Of a stretch of DNA of 64,000 nt, positions 1-8,031 are shown one piece after another. The position numbers and the translations under genes were made by a program. Numbering within the stretch: the first letter of the stretch is position 1; each line of letters starts with the position of its first letter. Below the pieces are notes generated by a model. That model did no database searches and had not been told where the DNA came from. It was given only the letters and a program-made list of their open reading frames with translations. The DNA comes from a bacterium (GTDB lineage Bacteria > Zhuqueibacterota > Zhuqueibacteria > Residuimicrobiales > Krinioviventaceae): NCBI GenBank assembly GCA_963674595.2, contig CAXXFV010000016.1, forward strand, positions 256,001 to 320,000. The letters run 5' to 3'.

Positions 1-2
1 GT

Positions 3-317
3 ACAAGCTTTGCAGATATTTTTAAAAATAATGCAATGAAAAACGGTCTTTTACCCGTTACGATTGACGAAAAAGTGCAAAATCATCTATTCGAACTGTT
101 TGATAAAGATCAGCAAGCAGAACTGTTTGTCGATTTACAGAACCAGGAACTGGATGTTCCCGGTCATCAAAAGGTCCATTTTGAGATTGATTCTTTTAAC
201 AAAAACTGCCTGCTCGAAGGAATTGATCAGCTTGGCTTTTTACTAAAGACATTACCGGAAATTCAATCCTTTGAAAAAAAATATCCAAAACGAGTTAATA
301 CCCTGGAGATATTTTAA
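3..317 (+). CDS. leuD: 3-isopropylmalate dehydratase small subunit, 3' part (5'-truncated by window edge)
   Basis: Frame is open from base 3: TSFADIFKNNAMKNGLLPV...VDLQNQ...FEID...LLEGIDQLG matches the LeuD C-terminal half. Confidence 0.9.
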   Translation, partial: TSFADIFKNNAMKNGLLPVTIDEKVQNHLFELFDKDQQAELFVDLQNQELDVPGHQKVHFEIDSFNKNCLLEGIDQLGFLLKTLPEIQSFEKKYPKRVNTLEIF

Positions 318-324
318 CTATATC

Positions 325-348
325 ATTTAATTGAAAAAACAATTAAAT
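325..348. promoter_or_regulatory. Perfect 9-6-9 inverted repeat, candidate metalloregulator operator
   Basis: ATTTAATTG-AAAAAA-CAATTAAAT, 32 nt upstream of the znuA ATG. Confidence 0.4.
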
Positions 349-380
349 TGGAGGATTGTGTTACCTTTAAAGGAAATTAT

Positions 381-1259
381 ATGCTCAAAAGTTTTTTTTT
401 AACAATTCTTACACTCACAAATATTATATATGCCCAACCCCATTTTGTGACAACAATACCGCCTTTTCAATTTATAATTAAAGAAATTACCGGGGAACGC
501 GCGGATGTTTATTGTATTATCCCGCCGGGAGCTTCACCACACACCTATGAAATGAGAGCCTCTGACATGCGTAGTGTGGAAAAAGCGGATGCGCTTTTTA
601 TGGGAAATGAAAACCTGGACAGATGGGCGTTAAAATTTAAAACAAAAAAAAGATGTGAGCTTGTCGATTTAATTCCTGCCGAGTATCGGCTGGTTTTTGA
701 TAATCATAAAAGTCATTCTCATAAAGTACAAGGCCACAGCCACGATCATGATGGGGTGGACCCGCATTTTTGGTCTGATCCTTTAGCGGTTAAAGCAATT
801 CTGCCCGCCCTAACAGCATATTTATCAGAGTTGGACCCGCCGGGGAAGCCTGTTTATGAAGAAAATATGACAGCTTTTTCCGGGCAATTAGATTCATTGG
901 ATACACAAATAAAAACGTTATTGAAACCTGTAAAAGGTCATACTGTTATTTTGTCTCATCCCTTTTTTAGATATTTTTTTAACAGGTATGACCTGCATTT
1001 GGCAGGAATCGTTGAGATAGCAGCCGGTACGGAGCCGTCACCGAAGGATTTAGTTAAAGTGATTAAAATTATTAAAGATGAAAAGGTCAAGGCTATCTTT
1101 ACGCATCCGCAGCTTTCTGATCGTCCGTCACAAATTATCGCTGAAACTGCCGGCATTTTCTGTGTAATGTTGGATCCTCTTGGAGGTGTTGAAGGTAAAG
1201 CTTCCTATAAAGAATTGTTACTGGCTAATACCCATACAATTTTGGAGGCCCTTCAATGA
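381..1259 (+). CDS. znuA: Zn/Mn ABC transporter substrate-binding protein (ZnuA/TroA family)
   Basis: PGASPHTYE, His-rich loop HKSHSHKVQGHSHDHD, DPHFW, HPFFRYF; ATG381 follows AAGGA. Confidence 0.88.
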   Translation: MLKSFFLTILTLTNIIYAQPHFVTTIPPFQFIIKEITGERADVYCIIPPGASPHTYEMRASDMRSVEKADALFMGNENLDRWALKFKTKKRCELVDLIPAEYRLVFDNHKSHSHKVQGHSHDHDGVDPHFWSDPLAVKAILPALTAYLSELDPPGKPVYEENMTAFSGQLDSLDTQIKTLLKPVKGHTVILSHPFFRYFFNRYDLHLAGIVEIAAGTEPSPKDLVKVIKIIKDEKVKAIFTHPQLSDRPSQIIAETAGIFCVMLDPLGGVEGKASYKELLLANTHTILEALQ

Positions 1260-2002
1260 GCGAACATGTTATTGACATTCGTCAACTTTCTATAAAGTTT
1301 GGCGATCACCTGGCTTTGGACAAGATAAAAGTACAAATTGAATCAGGTGATTTTGTCGCCATTGTAGGTCCAAATGGGGCCGGAAAATCAACCCTTTTTA
1401 AAGTCCTGCTGGGTTTATTACAGCCGACTGAGGGGCAGGTAAGGATTTTCGACGAACCTGCCTATCGTGCACCAGCTCAGTGGATTGGATATGTACCGCA
1501 AATGAAAACATTGGACCGGAGTTTTCCTGCTCAGGCTGTTGAATTGGTACTTACCGGTTTAAACAGAAGATGGCCCTGGCGGAAAGAAAAGTCAGAATAT
1601 AAAAAAGCCATAGAAGCATTGGAACAGGTGAGCGCTGAACATTTGGCTACAAGACCTGTTGGAAGATTGTCCGGTGGAGAGCTTCAAAGAGTTTGTCTGG
1701 CCCGGAGTATTGTTCGTCAGCCAAAAATTGTTTTGCTGGATGAACCGGCAACCGGTATTGACGCCATCGGTGAAGCGGACATGTATCGTTTGCTGGAAGC
1801 CTATCAAAAGCAAAGCAGCGCCACAATTCTTATGATTACCCATGACTGGCATGCAGCAACACATCATGCTGATAATGTCTTGTTACTGAACCGAAAAAAA
1901 ATTAGTTATGGCCCGCCTTCAGTTTCTTTGGCTGAAGATAATTTGCGATTGGCATTTGGTCATATCGGACATAAACATGAATTGAAATTTTTAATGAAAT
2001 AA
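1256..2002 (+). CDS. znuC: Metal ABC transporter ATP-binding protein
   Basis: Walker A GPNGAGKS, LSGGELQR, LLLDEP-type Walker B (VLLDEP), THD; ATGA overlap with znuA. Confidence 0.9.
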   Translation: MSEHVIDIRQLSIKFGDHLALDKIKVQIESGDFVAIVGPNGAGKSTLFKVLLGLLQPTEGQVRIFDEPAYRAPAQWIGYVPQMKTLDRSFPAQAVELVLTGLNRRWPWRKEKSEYKKAIEALEQVSAEHLATRPVGRLSGGELQRVCLARSIVRQPKIVLLDEPATGIDAIGEADMYRLLEAYQKQSSATILMITHDWHAATHHADNVLLLNRKKISYGPPSVSLAEDNLRLAFGHIGHKHELKFLMK

Positions 2003-2003
2003 T

Positions 2004-2807
2004 ATGATAGAAATATTTTCTTTACCCTTTATGCAGAGAGCCTTGATTGGCGGAATCCTGGTGGCCTTTTTAGCAAGTTATTATGGAGTTTTTGTTGTCC
2101 AGCGGGGTTTGTCTTTTTTAGGGAGCGGACTTGCTCATGCCGCCTTTGGCGGTGTGGCTTTGGGAATCTTGTTAAGTGTGGAACCTCTTTGGGTGGCTAT
2201 TCCCTTTACTGTTTTTGTTGCCATTGCAATTGCCTGGTTAAGAGAAAGGACCAAGCTTGGCAGCGATACGGCAATAGGCATTTTTTTTGCCGTTTCAATG
2301 GCGCTTGGAATTGTTTTTCTTTTTATCAGACGTGAATATACGGATGATGCATTTACATTCCTCTTTGGATCTATTTTAGCGGTTACCACAAAAGATATTT
2401 GGATGTCCTTTGGAGTCGTTTTGCTGACCCTTTTTACCACTCCCATGTGGAAAAGATGGGCTTATGCGTCATTTGACCGGGAACTGGCATTAACAGACCG
2501 TCTTTCTGTTCTCAGAGACGATTATTTATTAATTATTTTTATTGCTTTAACAGTGGTCGTTGCTATTAAAGTTGTGGGTATTGTTTTAATAGCCGCATTT
2601 CTTGTTATTCCTGCTGCCACGGCTCGTCTTTTAGCCCAAACTTTTAAGGTAATGACGATTATTTCCGTGTGTTTTGGAATTTTGGGTGTTATAGTTGGAC
2701 TTGTTTTATCTTATTATCTTGACCTTCCCAGCGGCGCTGTGATAATATTATTTCAGGCAATTATGTTTTTTATTGTTATTTTTATCTCAGCGATTCGAAA
2801 TAATTAG
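2004..2807 (+). CDS. znuB: Metal ABC transporter permease (ABC-3 family)
   Basis: FMQRAL, LAHAAFGG, LFGSIL, VVGIVLIAAFLVIPAATA. Confidence 0.9.
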   Translation: MIEIFSLPFMQRALIGGILVAFLASYYGVFVVQRGLSFLGSGLAHAAFGGVALGILLSVEPLWVAIPFTVFVAIAIAWLRERTKLGSDTAIGIFFAVSMALGIVFLFIRREYTDDAFTFLFGSILAVTTKDIWMSFGVVLLTLFTTPMWKRWAYASFDRELALTDRLSVLRDDYLLIIFIALTVVVAIKVVGIVLIAAFLVIPAATARLLAQTFKVMTIISVCFGILGVIVGLVLSYYLDLPSGAVIILFQAIMFFIVIFISAIRNN

Positions 2808-2825
2808 TCCGGGAGTTGTTAACTA

Positions 2826-3122
2826 TTGGTTAATTTTAAAAAATATTTAATAATTTTTCTGGCACTATTTGTTGCTTTTCTGGTTGTTTATCAACCAGTT
2901 TTTCATAATCACCAGCCTGATTTTCGTGATCATGAAAGCTGTCCTTCAACATTGCTGGCAATATTATTTTCTGTTGACTCATTTCTGTTTATAAAGGTTT
3001 TTGTTCTTTTTCTGTTTGTCTTTTTTGATTTATTGTTTACACCAACATTTCAAAGATGTTCTTTTTTTATACCATTATTAAATTATAAAAGGGGTCCTCC
3101 CGCATATTGTGATGTTTTATAA
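2826..3122 (+). CDS. Small membrane leader protein with His/Cys cluster and C-terminal RGPP (DUF2946/CruR-like)
   Basis: SD GGGAG 2811-2815 and TTG start; N-terminal hydrophobic helix; FHNHQPDFRDHESC; ends KRGPPAYCDVL. Confidence 0.7.
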   Translation: MVNFKKYLIIFLALFVAFLVVYQPVFHNHQPDFRDHESCPSTLLAILFSVDSFLFIKVFVLFLFVFFDLLFTPTFQRCSFFIPLLNYKRGPPAYCDVL

Positions 3123-3152
3123 ATTTGTAAAATTTTACAACATATTAGGGAG
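3097..3152 (+). promoter_or_regulatory. mRNA hairpin sequestering the SD of the 3159 gene
   Basis: CTCCC(3097-3101):GGGAG(3148-3152), ATAT:ATAT, TGTGA:TTACA, TTTTAT:GTAAAA. Confidence 0.7.
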
Positions 3153-3158
3153 AAAAAA

Positions 3159-3614
3159 ATGCATAATTTTAAAAAATATATATCCGTATTTTTTTGTATT
3201 GGTGTGCTATTTGTTATCGGTTGCAGTGAAGATAATCCCGTTGAACCAACTGAAACTCATAATGAGGCTGAAGGATTAATCCTTCGAACTGATGGTCAGG
3301 ATTTGGTCATTGTAAAGGAAGGTACTGTAAAATCCGGACAGATCACTGTTAATGTAGATAGCCAAACACCAACAATTAAAGCTGTATTTTTAGATGAAGA
3401 TGATGACGAGTTTGAACCTCATGAAGAGGGCTCGTCGCTTGCTTTTGAGTTTGGAAGTAATGAAACAGCAGAAGCTGTTATGGTGGACGGTAAACAGTGG
3501 GAGTTTGTTGTTAACGGTAAAAAGGTCGGAACAACAACCCTGGTAGTTAAATTAATGCATGGAGATCACAGCGATTTTTTGACTCCTAACATAACTGTTT
3601 CTGTAACAGAGTAA
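3159..3614 (+). CDS. Lipoprotein with His motifs, probable metal-binding partner of the TonB receptor
   Basis: Lipobox VIGC; THNEAEG, PHEEG, MHGDHSDF; beta-rich. Confidence 0.65.
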   Translation: MHNFKKYISVFFCIGVLFVIGCSEDNPVEPTETHNEAEGLILRTDGQDLVIVKEGTVKSGQITVNVDSQTPTIKAVFLDEDDDEFEPHEEGSSLAFEFGSNETAEAVMVDGKQWEFVVNGKKVGTTTLVVKLMHGDHSDFLTPNITVSVTE

Positions 3615-3629
3615 TTTATTAAGGAACAC

Positions 3630-5846
3630 ATGATGCGTACAATAGTTCTTTTTACGCTTCTGACTGTTTCATTTGCATATACCGCAGTTCCTTCCTCAAC
3701 GGACCGGAACTGCGGTTCCTTATATGGCGTATTTCTCGATGCTGAAACAGGACAGGGAGTTGGTGGCATTCAGGTTTTACTGAATGAAATTAAACGATCA
3801 GGGGTTACACATGAAGATGGTCATTTTTTTCTACCGGCTATTCCAATGGGAACCTATACGGTACAGACATTTCGAATCGGTTATAAAAATATTGTCAAAA
3901 ATATTGCTATAAATCGATGTGATACAATCCGTGTTGAATTTCACATTTTTAAAGCTCCAATTATGCTGAATGCCGTTATGGTTGATGCAGAAGAGGAAAA
4001 TACACTTGATTTTGTTATGGATAAAAATCCGGTTGAGCTTGAAGGTAAACGACTGCGTCGCCAATTGGGACGGACAATTGCTGAAACCCTCGTCAACGAG
4101 CCCGGCATTGATCAAAGGACCATGGGACCCGCGCCTGCTCGTCCGGTTTTGCGAGGATTAAGCGGTGATCGTTTACTCGTATTGGAAGATGGTGAACGTA
4201 CCGGAGATTTATCTGCAACATCTGCTGATCATGCTGTTGTTATTGAACCGATGACTGCGGAGCGTGTTGAAGTTATTCGCGGTCCGGAGGCTTTGCTGTA
4301 TGGTTCCAATACCATTGGTGGTGTTATTAATGTCGATCGCGGTTATGTTCCTACAACGAACCTTGACCATTGGCATGGGACTGTTTCTTATCAGGGCGAA
4401 TCGGTCAATAATGGGCACAGTAGTGGAATCAAGGTTAATTTACCGGCGGGACCTTTTTCTATGCATGTTGATGCAAGCATGCGAAATACACAGGATATAA
4501 AAACACCTAAAAAGAAACTCTTGAATACCAGTATTATTACCAACAATGCTTCATTGGGCATGAGCATTGTAAGACCATGGGGCCTTTTAGGTGTTGCCGG
4601 TAGTTTGTATGATAGCGAATATGGTATACCGGGCGGTTTTATCGGTGCCCACAAGTCCGGTGTAGATGTTGAGCTGAACAGACGTCATTTTGAAGCAAAG
4701 TCTGAATTTTATTTTCAGAATGATTGGATAAAAAGAGTAAATGCCCGTTATAATTTTTCCAGATATTATCATCTTGAACGGGAAGCAAATGGTATTCCCG
4801 GAATTGAATTCGGTGTTTTAAATTATAATTTTTCATTGATGGCTCGTTTAAAAGACCATCCTCATTTTAAAAATGGTGAAGTTGGGCTATGGAGTGAATA
4901 TCGTGATTTTGCAGCCGGTGTGTATGCTTTTACTCCTCAAGCAGTTGAAAAGAAAATAGCTGGTTTTGCTTTCCAGGAGTTTATCTTGGGACGTTTTGGG
5001 ATAAAAGCGGCCCTTCGCTATGATGTGCTGCAAGTAATTCCTCAGCAGGAAAAGTATGATAAAAAAATTGGTTACATTCAAAACCGAAATTTTTCTGATT
5101 TTTCCGGTTCTTTTGCAGCAATATACGAAATAAATCGTCATTTACATTATGGAACGACGGTAATGAAAAGTTTTCGATCTCCAGGCATTGAAGAACTGTA
5201 TTCACGGGGACCACATTTAGCAGCTTATTCTTTTGAGATTGGAAATCCATCTTTGGGTAAAGAACAGGGTATAGGTATAGAAACCTTTTTACATTTTGAA
5301 GGGCAACCCGGAAATGCCCAAATAGCATTATTTCGCAATAATATATCCGGCTATGTTTTTCCCAAAAACACAGGTCAGTTGGATTACAGCACATTATTAC
5401 CTGTTTACCAGTATTCCGGATCTAATGTGATAATAGAGGGATGTGAATTGGCCTTTGAGTTGCTGCCCTGGCAGTTTATAGCTTTTTCCGGAAGCATGAG
5501 TTATGTTTATGGTGAAATGGATTCCGGAGAAGCCATGCCATTGATGCCCCCGTTACATGGCAAACTTGATGTTCAGTTACTGTGGAACCAAACAACAATT
5601 GGTTTTCGTGCAAGAGCAGCGGATGAGCAAACCAGGCTTGGACGTTTTGAAGAATATACCGCTGGTTTTACTGTTTACGATCTTATGGGGCAATATTTAT
5701 TAAATGTTGGTCACTATTTATCTTCAATAAATTTGACGATAGAAAATATTACCAACCAGGAATATCGAAAACATTTATCTCGTGTTAAGGCCGTTATGCC
5801 TGAACCAGGAAGAAATGTAAAACTATTATTTAGAATTTATTTTTAA
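3630..5846 (+). CDS. TonB-dependent receptor, ZnuD-like metal transporter
   Basis: N-terminal carboxypeptidase-like domain; plug RPVLRGLSGDR...SADHAV...VEVIRGPEALLYG; NITNQEYRKHLSR..PGRN; terminal Phe. Confidence 0.88.
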   Translation: MMRTIVLFTLLTVSFAYTAVPSSTDRNCGSLYGVFLDAETGQGVGGIQVLLNEIKRSGVTHEDGHFFLPAIPMGTYTVQTFRIGYKNIVKNIAINRCDTIRVEFHIFKAPIMLNAVMVDAEEENTLDFVMDKNPVELEGKRLRRQLGRTIAETLVNEPGIDQRTMGPAPARPVLRGLSGDRLLVLEDGERTGDLSATSADHAVVIEPMTAERVEVIRGPEALLYGSNTIGGVINVDRGYVPTTNLDHWHGTVSYQGESVNNGHSSGIKVNLPAGPFSMHVDASMRNTQDIKTPKKKLLNTSIITNNASLGMSIVRPWGLLGVAGSLYDSEYGIPGGFIGAHKSGVDVELNRRHFEAKSEFYFQNDWIKRVNARYNFSRYYHLEREANGIPGIEFGVLNYNFSLMARLKDHPHFKNGEVGLWSEYRDFAAGVYAFTPQAVEKKIAGFAFQEFILGRFGIKAALRYDVLQVIPQQEKYDKKIGYIQNRNFSDFSGSFAAIYEINRHLHYGTTVMKSFRSPGIEELYSRGPHLAAYSFEIGNPSLGKEQGIGIETFLHFEGQPGNAQIALFRNNISGYVFPKNTGQLDYSTLLPVYQYSGSNVIIEGCELAFELLPWQFIAFSGSMSYVYGEMDSGEAMPLMPPLHGKLDVQLLWNQTTIGFRARAADEQTRLGRFEEYTAGFTVYDLMGQYLLNVGHYLSSINLTIENITNQEYRKHLSRVKAVMPEPGRNVKLLFRIYF

Positions 5847-5865
5847 ATCCAATTCTGTTTTAAAT

Positions 5866-7659
5866 TTATTTTGCCAACAGCATTTTTATTGATTTACTGG
5901 TATTTCCTGTTCTCAGGTGACATATATATATTCCTGATGCTACCAAATTTCCATTTTCATCCAGTCCATCCCATTTGCTCATATAGTGCCCGGCAGGTTG
6001 ATAACAGTTCTCAAGAGTTCTTATTTCTTTTCCTGTTATGTCGTAAACGGCAAGATGAATGTCCATAGCATTGGGAATTTCATATTCAATTTGTGTTGAC
6101 GGATTAAATGGATTCGGGTAATTTTGTGCAAGCTGAAAACTAGTTGGAATGTTTTTATCTCCTTTATATTCCACGGATACATAGTTTGGTTCTGTTATTT
6201 CGTGATATTGATTGATATCGACATTTTTTAATACTTGTTTATATCCCAATGGCCATTTTATAGTGACCGAATCAATACTTGTTGCGAATCCGATTCCAAA
6301 ATGGACCCAGGGATTATACTGGTTAAAATGTTGATCTCCACATCGTGTTAACCGAATTTGTTTTTTATCGCCGGTATAAATTGTAACCAGACTACCGACA
6401 GCATCTTTGTTGGAAATTGTTCCTTCTAAAATAAAACCAACCCAATTGGCATCGTTTCCACCTTGATTTTCATAGAGTATATGTCCAAATTCTGGTGAAG
6501 GTATATAAATATCTAAAAATCCGTCGCGATTGAAATCAAAAAAACCACAGTTTTTTCGGCCTCCTAATTTGTCAATACCTGCAAATTCAGCAACATCTAC
6601 AAAAGTACGTACACCGGGTGATACCTCTATATTAGACAAGTAAAAGTCGGGACTTTGAGCATTGCCGCTATCAAGAAAAACATCCTGATCACCATCATTA
6701 TCTGCATCACCAAATGTGACACCCCGGTGAGCATATTGCATCCCGTTGAGTCCGGCCTGAAGAGAGATGTCATAATATACGCCGTCTCTATTTTCCCAAA
6801 GTTCGTTGTAATCCGGGCTATCTAAACGAGCTGTTACCTTGAAAAAATCAAGGTCACCATCGTTGTCATAATCAAAAAATCTTTTGTACCAGCAAGTGCC
6901 AATCTCGGCAAAGCCTAATTCTTCGGTTACATTGGTAAAAACGCCATTGTCATTTCTTAAAAAATTTGATTTACCGACCAAATCAGGATCACCGTCAAGG
7001 TCAAAATCCGTAAAAACGACCCGCCATTCTTCAGCAAGAGGTGTATTATCAAGCCCTGCTTCAGTAGCAACATTTGTAAAATGGTCACCGTCGTTTCGAA
7101 ATAGATACAAATTGTCATAACTTAGCTGACTGACAACACAATCCAGATCACCATCTAAATCATAATCAGCCCACCCGCAAATATTACAGTCCCATTCAAT
7201 TATGAATCCACCCGGTTTTGGGGCGATAAAACCCATTTCCTCAGAAACTTCGGTAAATACATTATCATCATTTCTGAGCAGGTGAATAGCATCGATAGTT
7301 GCCATGGAAAGGTCTTTGTCACCATCATTATCATAATCGGCCCACAATGTTGTCCGTGTTGACTTTTCCTGTAAATCTATTTGCTCTATTGGGGTTTGGT
7401 CTGTTATATCGGTAAAATGAACATTATTATTTGTGTATATTCTGCTATAACCCGGTTCCTGCCATCTTGTACAAAAAATATCCTGATAACCATTACGATC
7501 AATGTCTGCCAGGGCCAGACCTCCCTTTTCAAATGGTGGAAATCCAAGTCCCAGACTGATATTGTCGGCAACAATAAAATAGGTCAGTTCCTGTGCTTGA
7601 AGGGAAAAAGCTGAAAATAAAATGCAAAATTGGATAACTATGTAGCGAACTGTTTTCAT
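5866..7659 (-). CDS. Secreted FG-GAP/ASPIC-UnbV (CRTAC1-like) protein with FlgD-Ig/T9SS-like C-terminal domain
   Basis: Repeated DYDNDGDLD-type motifs, HFGIG...IKWP, NYPNPFNP...GIYICHL; ATG7659 follows GGAGG. Confidence 0.85.
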   Translation of the reverse strand: MKTVRYIVIQFCILFSAFSLQAQELTYFIVADNISLGLGFPPFEKGGLALADIDRNGYQDIFCTRWQEPGYSRIYTNNNVHFTDITDQTPIEQIDLQEKSTRTTLWADYDNDGDKDLSMATIDAIHLLRNDDNVFTEVSEEMGFIAPKPGGFIIEWDCNICGWADYDLDGDLDCVVSQLSYDNLYLFRNDGDHFTNVATEAGLDNTPLAEEWRVVFTDFDLDGDPDLVGKSNFLRNDNGVFTNVTEELGFAEIGTCWYKRFFDYDNDGDLDFFKVTARLDSPDYNELWENRDGVYYDISLQAGLNGMQYAHRGVTFGDADNDGDQDVFLDSGNAQSPDFYLSNIEVSPGVRTFVDVAEFAGIDKLGGRKNCGFFDFNRDGFLDIYIPSPEFGHILYENQGGNDANWVGFILEGTISNKDAVGSLVTIYTGDKKQIRLTRCGDQHFNQYNPWVHFGIGFATSIDSVTIKWPLGYKQVLKNVDINQYHEITEPNYVSVEYKGDKNIPTSFQLAQNYPNPFNPSTQIEYEIPNAMDIHLAVYDITGKEIRTLENCYQPAGHYMSKWDGLDENGNLVASGIYICHLRTGNTSKSIKMLLAK

Positions 7660-7829
7660 ATTGTCCTCCATTTGGCCAATGAATTTTTTTATAATATGGA
7701 ATTGTATTTTTATATACCTGCAAATGCACGAATTTTATATAAATCTAAAGTGTAAGGAAATACATTATTTTTAAGAGTATTAAATGTTACATATATAGAA
7801 AAGTCAAATCAGGATGGAGAGAACATTTA

Positions 7830-7919
7830 TGATCATTTTGATCAATTTGTATGAACTTTTTGATAAATTTACTTAATAATTATCCTCAAGTCAAGTTTTT
7901 TTATTGAACATTTTGTTCA
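7830..7919. promoter_or_regulatory. Three TGAWCA-N3-TGWTCA boxes
   Basis: TGATCAtttTGATCA 7830-7844; TGAACTtttTGATAA 7852-7866; TGAACAtttTGTTCA 7905-7919. Confidence 0.45.
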
Positions 7920-8031
7920 TTTTGCAGGTAAAAATTTTATGAAAGGGGGGAGTAGCTAAAAAAACTGGATTATAAGATATAATCAAATGTGAAATTTTAA
8001 TATTTAGATTTATTTTTAAACACCTAAAAAC

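Follow-up and report, generated by a model that had tools for sequence, protein, structure and literature searches.

A candidate arrest leader, probably zinc-sensing, between ZnuABC-type importer genes and a TonB-dependent receptor gene

What is a 98-codon open reading frame (ORF) doing between the genes of a metal importer and the gene of an outer-membrane receptor? The question arises in the window, the whole stretch of 64,000 nucleotides (nt) of contig CAXXFV010000016.1 (assembly GCA_963674595.2) analysed here, where a same-strand row of genes at 348-5846 consists of importer genes, the small ORF, a lipoprotein gene and the gene of a TonB-dependent receptor. An earlier note on this DNA had taken the ORF for a metal-sensing leader whose nascent chain arrests the ribosome and so controls translation of the next genes, and at the comparative level the sequences examined here support that interpretation. 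We favour, at a probability of roughly 0.58, the reading that the ORF at 2826-3122 is an arrest leader of the kind known from CruR and CutF, that it probably senses zinc and that it unmasks the Shine-Dalgarno (SD) sequence serving the lipoprotein and receptor genes. That it is a regulatory arrest leader of some sort appears likely, with good confidence.

The leader peptide and its family

The first possible start of the frame is the TTG at 2826, which stands 10 nt behind an SD sequence of its own, and the frame ends with TAA at 3120-3122. The ORF, motifs and coordinates of the earlier note thus stand, apart from its beginning: position 2811 belongs to the SD sequence and the start codon is the TTG. 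The peptide carries the motif H27-N28-H29-x2-D32-x3-H36-x2-C39, flanked on both sides by hydrophobic stretches. An AlphaFold2 model on a 20-sequence alignment (mean predicted local distance difference test score, pLDDT, 74.9) places helices at residues 2-21 and 40-70 with the ligand loop between them, and leaves residues 71-98 as an unstructured tail; the second hydrophobic stretch that had been noted before can hence be specified as a predicted transmembrane helix. The N-terminal helix has K5-K6 near its start and is predicted to act as a signal or N-in/C-out anchor of the type found in CruR and CutF. Towards the C-terminus follows R89-G-P-P (residues 89-92), six residues (AYCDVL) ahead of the stop, and its Pro-Pro appears to be placed for the P and A sites of the ribosome.

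Neither Pfam nor NCBIfam assigned a family to the leader, and a word-indexed protein search with this single protein returned only itself. Among 1.84 billion representative proteins, 13 further proteins of 87-104 amino acids (aa) were matched, and a six-frame search of 41 related genomes gave 18 places at E <= 4.1e-5, all open frames without stops. A profile built from the 20-sequence alignment matches 54 of the 167 genomes of the phylum (36 of the 105 high-quality ones), while a pattern scan of public genomes, based on a narrower 10-sequence alignment, gave 12 loci whose record titles include candidate division KSB1 (2), 'uncultured Cytophagia' (5) and Ignavibacteria-type names (3). Members already in databases have no Pfam domain and are called 'hypothetical protein' at most. 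Judged by these matches, the leader is a real gene of an unannotated family.

Across the 20 aligned sequences H27, H29, D32, H36, C39, P91 and P92 are invariant and nothing else is; N28 and R89 are conserved in at least 90%, and mean column identity is 34%. The joint conservation of HxH and R-x-P-P, which the earlier note had named as a check, is thus borne out, the metal ligands and Pro-Pro being the sole invariant residues. All searches together yielded 83 sequences, 73 of them distinct in the core from motif to motif. In these 73 the C-terminal motif is RAPP (50), RSPP (13), RGPP (9) or KAPP (1), separated from the stop by 1-42 residues (median 3-4). Two subfamilies can be told apart by what follows the ligand Cys: 54 parsed members have a single Cys (C-P/V/I/T-x-x), the type to which the window leader with C39-P-S-T belongs, whereas 17 parsed members carry C-P/S-x-C, to which L065 and L077 (both CPAC) are added. 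The description of the leader as lacking CxxC was accordingly right in that its motif has only one Cys, but this Cys corresponds to the first one of the CPxC still found in the sister members.

Every one of the 54 single-Cys members has 46-49 residues between the first Cys and the Arg, the window leader having 49, and CxxC members mostly have 52-53. The sequence of this linker is unconserved, yet its length is kept. It is also of different character in the two groups: the most hydrophobic 19-residue stretch (Kyte-Doolittle) has a median of 2.46 in single-Cys and of 0.82 in CxxC members, the Ignavibacteria members L047 and L054 being exceptions to the strongly hydrophobic single-Cys linker.

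Published work describes RAPP and RGPP as giving the most robust arrests, refractory to elongation factor P (EF-P) (Fujiwara et al. 2025, PMC12992588), and as underrepresented in proteomes but overrepresented at the C-terminal ends of small localised proteins whose genes precede, among others, TonB receptor genes (PMC12992588). Most Streptomyces peptides of that study yielded mainly full-length product when translated in the E. coli system, so E. coli ribosomes may fail to arrest on motifs of this kind (PMC12992588). By analogy with the peptides studied there, the RGPP of the leader would be expected to arrest ribosomes. The genome itself avoids such motifs: in the 3,452 ORFs that have 250 aa or more, RAPP occurs 0 times, RGPP once and RSPP 0 times, where composition predicts 6.7, 7.0 and 6.8, so that one R[AGS]PP is seen against about 20 expected. 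Control motifs in the same ORFs are much less depleted or not depleted at all (AAPP 5 with 10.7 expected, AGPP 7 with 11.3, RAPG 10 with 11.1, RPPA 9 with 6.7). When ORFs of 60-200 aa with a hydrophobic N-terminus were scanned for R[AGS]PP within 15 residues of the end, six were found, compared with two for the control A[AGS]PP. They are the window leader, its paralog L059, three members of a second family and one doubtful RSPP ORF; apart from this last one, all have R[AG]PP as their motif and stand in front of TonB receptor genes or a ZnuA-type operon.

The paralog (L059:3247-3564, contig C23; HNHEPDSKTHQDCPAH...RAPP) lies 38 nt upstream of a TonB receptor gene, and CCCUUUCAAUU pairs strongly with AAUUGAAAGGG at the receptor SD sequence (duplex -19.8). 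The second family, unrelated to the first and encoded in the same genome outside the window, comprises His-rich ORFs of 123-125 aa that end in RAPP or RGPP and have motifs of the type HxH...DG-x-V-x-H-x-H-P...H-T/N-H. One member (L079:1414-1788, plus strand) precedes genes for a 441-aa outer-membrane protein, a ZnuA-family protein and ABC-3 permeases, and two others form a tandem pair (L081:3450-3827 and 2938-3309, minus strand) before a TonB receptor with CarboxypepD_reg.

Pairing of the stall codons with the downstream SD sequence

In the minimum-energy fold of 3080-3175 (-18.7 kcal/mol) CUCCC at 3097-3101, contributed by the Pro-Pro codons, pairs with GGGAG at 3148-3152, the SD sequence of the lipoprotein gene. 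The interrupted stem that the earlier note had drawn here is borne out by folding and has 22 base pairs (bp). The two genes are 36 nt apart, and almost all of this gap is occupied by the hairpin. In free RNA the pairing probability of the lipoprotein SD sequence is about 1.0, and the best structure that leaves it free costs 5.4 kcal/mol more. When the bases up to 3111 are made unavailable, which corresponds roughly to what a ribosome would cover while its P site is at codon 91, this probability drops to 0.15-0.34 in constrained folding. An SD-sequestering stem-loop of the secM-secA and cutF-cutO type, with its 5' arm within reach of a stalled ribosome, is thus predicted.

The palindrome at 3125-3140 is perfect, as had been noted, but constrained folding turns it into a small hairpin of its own only when the 5' arm is occupied; it is better regarded as a leftover hairpin than as a separate riboswitch-like alternative. 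Two other roles were considered and rejected. As a repeated operator (Zur box) the palindrome is hardly more frequent than expected, with five matches at <=3 mismatches in the window versus 3.5 expected and 15 genome-wide versus 13 for a control pattern. As an intrinsic terminator the hairpin fails on what comes next, GAGAAAAAAA, which has no U run, and a terminator scan lists nothing at 3097-3152.

Pairing of this kind recurs among the relatives. Minimum-energy folds, which began 15 nt ahead of the Arg codon and ran 14 nt beyond the following start, were computed for 17 single-Cys loci with gaps of 36-202 nt (an 18th locus containing N was skipped), and in 15 of them the Pro-Pro codons or the next few codons pair with the downstream SD sequence, L012 and L026 being the exceptions. 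With 120 nt of upstream coding sequence added to the folds, 17 of the 27 non-redundant single-Cys loci have their SD partners between -6 and +18 nt relative to the P-site Pro codon, against about 2.6 expected from the share of the sequence. The SD pairing, the other check named in the earlier note, thus recurs within the subfamily of the window leader.

Duplex energies between two segments, the 36 nt that begin with the Arg codon and the last 33 nt up to the following start codon, point in the same direction. Cognate duplexes average -14.7 and non-cognate ones -10.5 in 30 loci, the cognate mean being reached by none of 20,000 permutations; none of 50,000 reached the observed mean overall when 46 loci were collapsed to 42 clusters, nor for the 27 single-Cys representatives (-14.6 versus -10.3 kcal/mol). 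With the 6-nt SD core fixed and the flanks shuffled at constant composition, 11 of the 27 single-Cys loci stay at or below 0.05. In 18 of 34 loci the first Pro is encoded by CCU, where 7.8 are expected from the Pro codon use of the downstream gene (P about 6e-5; 12 of the 46 loci were dropped for having fewer than eight Pro codons). We consider it probable that SD unmasking is the output of the leader at this locus.

Neighbouring genes and the proposed mechanism

The features of the locus are collected in Table 1. The context of the leader is linked to zinc: it lies in the same direction directly behind znuA, znuC and znuB genes, its ligand set is His3/Asp/Cys, and the ZnuA-type protein has a His-rich loop with 7 His in residues 111-140. 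Such a loop is typical of zinc-specific ZnuA. The receptor, too, has ZnuD as its best NCBIfam match, at 145 bits and far under the cut-off of 950 bits. On this evidence the odds that zinc is the metal sensed are somewhat better than even.

Table 1. Positions of the leader, its elements and the surrounding genes; positions refer to the window unless a locus is named
Feature	Position	Strand	Basis or remark
Leader ORF, 98 aa, TTG start	2826..3122	+	HNH...C...R-x-P-P family; no Pfam/NCBIfam match
GGGAG, SD of the leader	2811..2815	+	10 nt 5' of TTG 2826; read from sequence
N-terminal hydrophobic helix, codons 2-21 (predicted signal-anchor/first transmembrane helix)	2829..2888	+	AlphaFold2 helix, pLDDT 86-88
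Proposed metal-binding loop, codons 27-39, H-N-H-Q-P-D-F-R-D-H-E-S-C	2904..2942	+	Ligands invariant in 20/20; non-helical in model
Second hydrophobic helix, codons 40-70 (predicted second transmembrane helix), length-conserved linker	2943..3035	+	AlphaFold2 helix
Proposed arrest motif R89-G-P-P (AGG GGT CCT CCC)	3090..3101	+	Anti-SD CUCCC = 3097-3101
Interrupted 22-bp hairpin closing on the SD of the next gene	3097..3152	+	RNA folding
Perfect 16-nt palindrome TTGTAAAATTTTACAA	3125..3140	+	Residual hairpin once the 5' arm is occupied
GGGAG, SD of the lipoprotein gene	3148..3152	+	Sequence and folding
znuA-type substrate-binding protein with His-rich loop	348..1259	+	Pfam PF01297, E 1.1e-64; best NCBIfam match AztC, below cut-off
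ATP-binding cassette (ABC) ATPase, znuC-like	1256..2002	+	PF00005 (ABC_tran); NCBIfam MntA/AztA/ZnuC-like matches all below cut-off
ABC-3 permease, znuB-like	2004..2807	+	PF00950, E 1e-69
151-aa lipoprotein, lipobox ...VIGC	3159..3614	+	No significant Pfam or NCBIfam family
TonB-dependent receptor with N-terminal CarboxypepD_reg	3630..5846	+	PF00593 (beta-barrel), PF07715 (Plug), PF13715
385-525-aa proteins of other loci	L063:2535-4109, L064:2542-3834, L072:2419-3669, L073:2556-3836, L049:740-1894

Downstream genes were read from the first residues of ORFs in 61 loci (30, 11 with 5-kb flanks, and 20), and a Pfam scan of a sample of loci confirmed their identities. As with CruR and CutF, the genes that immediately follow the leader on its strand serve metal homeostasis. 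It is followed either by a His-rich lipoprotein and then a TonB receptor with CarboxypepD_reg, or by a TonB receptor directly, or by a 385-525-aa outer-membrane-type protein and then a ZnuA-family binding protein and two ABC-3 permeases; the last arrangement is the rule in the CxxC subfamily. The 385-525-aa proteins, which have a signal peptide, in most cases then a coiled-coil stretch, and no significant Pfam family, separate the leader from the ZnuA-family gene in all complete CxxC loci as well as in the single-Cys locus L049; they may represent an undescribed outer-membrane metal channel.

A mechanism that would connect these observations runs as follows. The first helix would target the nascent leader chain to the membrane, and the 13-residue loop H27-C39 would become exposed on the periplasmic side. 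Some 50 residues later the ribosome would arrest at R89-G-P-P, its P site on the Pro codon 3096-3098 and its A site on 3099-3101; this arrest would be the default state. Because the anti-SD sequence consists of the arrest codons themselves, the stalled ribosome would enclose CUCCC (3097-3101) and hold the hairpin 3097-3152 open, so that GGGAG at 3148-3152 is free for translation of the lipoprotein gene and, along with it, of the TonB-dependent receptor gene. At that point, with codon 91 in the P site, a spacing of about 50 residues would put the ligand loop just outside the membrane and the first half of helix 2 in the translocon. Metal, most likely Zn(II), bound by the loop would release the arrest, either through folding of the loop or by helping helix 2 to enter the membrane and so pulling on the chain. 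The hairpin would then re-form, and at sufficient periplasmic metal the outer-membrane uptake module would be turned down independently of the upstream ZnuABC genes. Relief of the arrest by metal is assumed because the targets are importers and because CruR sets a precedent; we hold this polarity to be slightly favoured.

A more specific version seems less likely than not to us: that the leader is a force sensor, a two-helix membrane hairpin in which periplasmic zinc binding alters the pull of helix-2 insertion and thereby sets the lifetime of an EF-P-refractory RGPP arrest, that a single transcript is so divided into an always-translated inner-membrane ZnuABC half and a zinc-gated outer-membrane half, and that the genome uses at least two unrelated His-rich R-x-P-P families in this way.

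Several observations concern the surrounding genes. Homologues of the lipoprotein, which make up an uncharacterised family with it, come after the leader in many loci (L010, L011, L013, L015, L027 and others), and many of these homologues have D-T-D-H-D-H-A-E-A soon after the lipobox. Its nearest cluster in the ESM Atlas is named 'Lipoprotein family protein' (score 0.97), the nearest clusters coming from Ignavibacteriota and Balneolota. The same 16 bases, TAATTTTAAAAAATAT, occur at 2831-2846 and 3164-3179, where they code for the N-termini of leader (V-N-F-K-K-Y) and lipoprotein (H-N-F-K-K-Y); the genome has 6 copies of this 16-mer. A promoter-like TTGACC-16 nt-(TG)GATAAT at 2719-2746, at the end of the permease gene and about 65 nt upstream of the SD sequence of the leader, could put the leader and the outer-membrane genes on a transcript of their own; promoter-like sites around the leader are no more frequent than in shuffled sequence. 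Rfam matched no family in window positions 1-8000. On the other side of the receptor gene, a convergent gene (5866-7671, minus strand) encodes a 601-aa protein with FG-GAP repeats and an ASPIC/UnbV domain, and with a weak match to a type IX secretion C-terminal sorting domain (25.4 bits, cut-off 27 bits).

Related arrest leaders and competing explanations

The closest likeness is to CruR (Bp2923, DUF2946/PF11162) of Bordetella pertussis, which is the upstream ORF of the TonB-dependent transporter BfrG (PMC9426467). In CruR, CxxC occupies residues 90-93 and RAPP residues 139-142, with three residues left after it; 48 residues lie between C90 and R139, or 45 when counted from the second Cys, and this spacing matters for regulation. 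Its arrest is relieved by copper, whereupon Rho terminates transcription in the 162-nt gap before BfrG (all PMC9426467). Like CruR, the window leader is a small ORF directly upstream of a gene for an outer-membrane TonB receptor, an importer that metal would be expected to turn down. Both peptides begin with a segment for export or anchoring, contain a metal motif that includes Cys, and have R-A/G-P-P at the C-terminal end, a short way ahead of the stop. The distance from first Cys to Arg is about 48 residues in both, the 49 of the window leader lying within one or two of the CruR value. Unlike CruR, its motif is H-N-H-x2-D-x3-H-x2-C-P-x-x with one Cys instead of CxxC, its linker is a predicted transmembrane helix, and a 36-nt gap with an SD-masking hairpin takes the place of the 162-nt gap with Rho-dependent termination. 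Furthermore, it stands in mid-operon behind znuACB, its metal is probably zinc and not copper, and its family occurs in metagenome-assembled genomes titled KSB1 or Ignavibacteria, whereas CruR belongs to Proteobacteria.

In CutF of Rhodobacter capsulatus (cutFOG), periplasmic copper induces a stall at PPP that melts a stem-loop shielding the ribosome-binding site (RBS) of cutO (PMC9973294, bioRxiv 10.1101/2025.02.05.636593); the CutF peptide is reported to be undetectable in vivo and not to complement in trans (PMC9973294). In our proposal the window leader would resemble CutF, in that an exported nascent peptide senses periplasmic metal and a stall at a C-terminal proline motif frees the RBS of the next gene. 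CutF differs in having CxxxC and PPP and in depending on EF-P, and its copper-bound stall switches on a detoxifying oxidase; the window leader has RGPP, His, Asp and Cys ligands and an importer as target, presumably with reversed polarity. His-only CutF-like clusters beside HupE/UreJ genes have been described, and sensing of other metals has been proposed for them (PMC9973294). With SecM/secA, ApdA and ApdP the leader shares the R-A/G-P-P (or RAGP) core, a signal for membrane targeting or secretion at the N-terminus and, as proposed for the leader, release through a pulling force and control over the gene that follows. SecM, ApdA and ApdP report on Sec/YidC activity and have no conserved metal ligands, while the leader has a metal-type motif at a fixed distance. 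It likewise conforms to the upstream-ORF class of Fujiwara et al. (PMC12992588), small ORFs with a localisation signal and R-A/G-P-P that are followed by a TonB receptor. The main text of that paper contains the word zinc 0 times and does not describe the leader motif, though its source-data gene lists may include the family. In the literature we found no characterised zinc-responsive arrest peptide, with the qualification that the supplementary lists of PMC12992588 and PMC9973294 may hold members. The Zur regulon of Caulobacter, as listed in PMC4176598, includes DUF2946 genes, one of them heading the czrCBA zinc-efflux operon, and no mechanism is proposed for them there.

The window leader thus has every sequence-level feature of CruR and CutF except the CxxC motif and a match to PF11162. 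For the latter (cut-off 23.7 bits) none of 20 members gave a match at E <= 10, none was found in the own genome and none of the 167 genomes of the phylum exceeded the cut-off. One relative, L041:1492-1800 (minus strand; HTHSDCPIC...RAPP), reaches 20.1 bits (E 1.1e-3), under the cut-off, and matches the family profile at E 1e-4; a protein search with it returned no match, and plasmid pMOL30 contained no match to PF11162 either. L041 is a possible bridge between the leader family and DUF2946. In the ESM Atlas the nearest named clusters have PF11162 in 24% of members (score 0.90) or PF20558 (0.88), which are leads only. The CPAC sisters, L041 and the ESM Atlas clusters are three weak links that point to a distant relationship with DUF2946. 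The resemblance to CruR and CutF that the earlier note had seen is in any case upheld, by the spacing from Cys to Arg and by the PF11162 score of L041.

A number of observations weigh against the reading as a zinc-sensing leader that unmasks an SD sequence. The absence of a PF11162 match among the members is one, the TTG start codon another. At the window itself the fold is modest for a single sequence (z = -1.96, 7 of 200 shuffles as good), and 18% of shuffles of the flanks with the SD core fixed pair as well as the real sequence, which is not significant. Complementarity of CCUCC to GGAGG follows almost automatically from Pro-Pro codons and any SD sequence, and a ribosome terminating at 3120-3122 opens the hairpin as well, so that plain translational coupling would use the same structure. 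Among the relatives, pairing is missing from 10 of the 27 single-Cys loci, most of which have gaps of 190-620 nt. The CxxC subfamily has SD partners near the stall codons in only 3 of 15 loci (1.5 expected); in its flank-shuffle test 2 of 15 loci are at or below 0.05 (mean z -0.25), and 2,376 of 50,000 permutations of its duplexes do as well. A separate set of 16 loci, made up of 15 CxxC loci and the single-Cys paralog L059, gave p = 0.018. Since this subfamily lacks a masking signal beyond the SD core, the output mechanism does not seem to be uniform across the leader family. With regard to zinc, ZnuA-family binding proteins also carry Mn or Fe, all NCBIfam matches of the importer and receptor proteins are below the cut-off, and the binding proteins of the sister subfamily have no His-rich loops. 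The loop with 7 His in 30 residues is confined to the window ZnuA, the binding proteins of other loci having 2-4 His and, as best NCBIfam match, the zinc protein AztC, always below cut-off.

These points lend themselves to other explanations. Sensing might be as in CruR and the output transcriptional, release of the arrest uncoupling translation from transcription and so leading to Rho-dependent termination or polarity before the lipoprotein and receptor genes, with SD masking only secondary. The Rho termination by which CruR acts before a TonB transporter (PMC9426467), the members with 190-620-nt gaps and no SD pairing, and the CxxC subfamily without a masking signal would all fit. In the window, on the other hand, the hairpin nearly fills the 36-nt gap and leaves little room for a Rho loading site, and SD pairing is specific to the single-Cys subfamily; we regard a transcriptional output here as improbable. 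Equally improbable to us is that the ORF encodes a small, stable membrane protein of two helices, which would assist uptake as an accessory metal-binding subunit or as a chaperone, and in which R-x-P-P slows translation and the hairpin serves ordinary coupling. The two confident AlphaFold2 helices with the ligands in the loop between them, the position of the gene inside the operon and not at its head, and the opening of the hairpin by a terminating ribosome agree with such a protein. Outside the ligands and R-x-P-P, however, sequence is not conserved and only linker length is kept, which suits a ruler better than a folded subunit; in addition, R[AGS]PP is almost excluded from the long ORFs of the genome, and anti-SD sequences at the stall codons are found far above chance.

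The same architecture could also work with the opposite sign, as in CutF, where copper induces stalling (bioRxiv 10.1101/2025.02.05.636593): metal would prolong the stall and switch the downstream genes on. The downstream genes, however, encode import components, a TonB receptor here and ZnuA-type importers in sister loci, so that expression induced by metal would run against homeostasis, and CruR, the precedent linked to an importer, is relieved by metal (PMC9426467). A reversed polarity is for these reasons held unlikely. Finally, something other than zinc might be sensed, either a different metal (Cu, Ni, Co, Cd, Mn or Fe) or the redox state of the lone motif Cys, which we judge to be a minor yet appreciable possibility. 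Such a ligand would be compatible with a ZnuA family that includes Mn and Fe binders and whose NCBIfam matches here all stay below cut-off, with the copper-type CxxC of sister members carrying CPAC, and with the link of His-only CutF-like clusters to Ni/Co genes (PMC9973294). The His-rich loop in the window ZnuA, the invariant Cys beside His and Asp, which argues against Mn or Fe, and ZnuD as the best, if weak, match of the receptor favour zinc instead.

For the favoured reading, a zinc-sensing leader that unmasks the downstream SD sequence, the meaning is as follows. Metal-sensing arrest peptides have been shown experimentally for copper only (CruR, CutF), and the principle is thus already published; if the reading is true, it would carry this principle over to another metal and into a group of uncultured bacteria that has received little study. 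Pfam-based surveys would then miss such leaders, because the family has no Pfam or NCBIfam model. The leader is compact and easy to mutate, with five ligands, a membrane-helix linker of fixed length and stall codons that double as anti-SD sequence, which would make it suitable for testing how an event outside the membrane reaches the ribosome. For the bacteria themselves, it would add a layer of translational control on zinc uptake beside transcriptional control of the Zur type.

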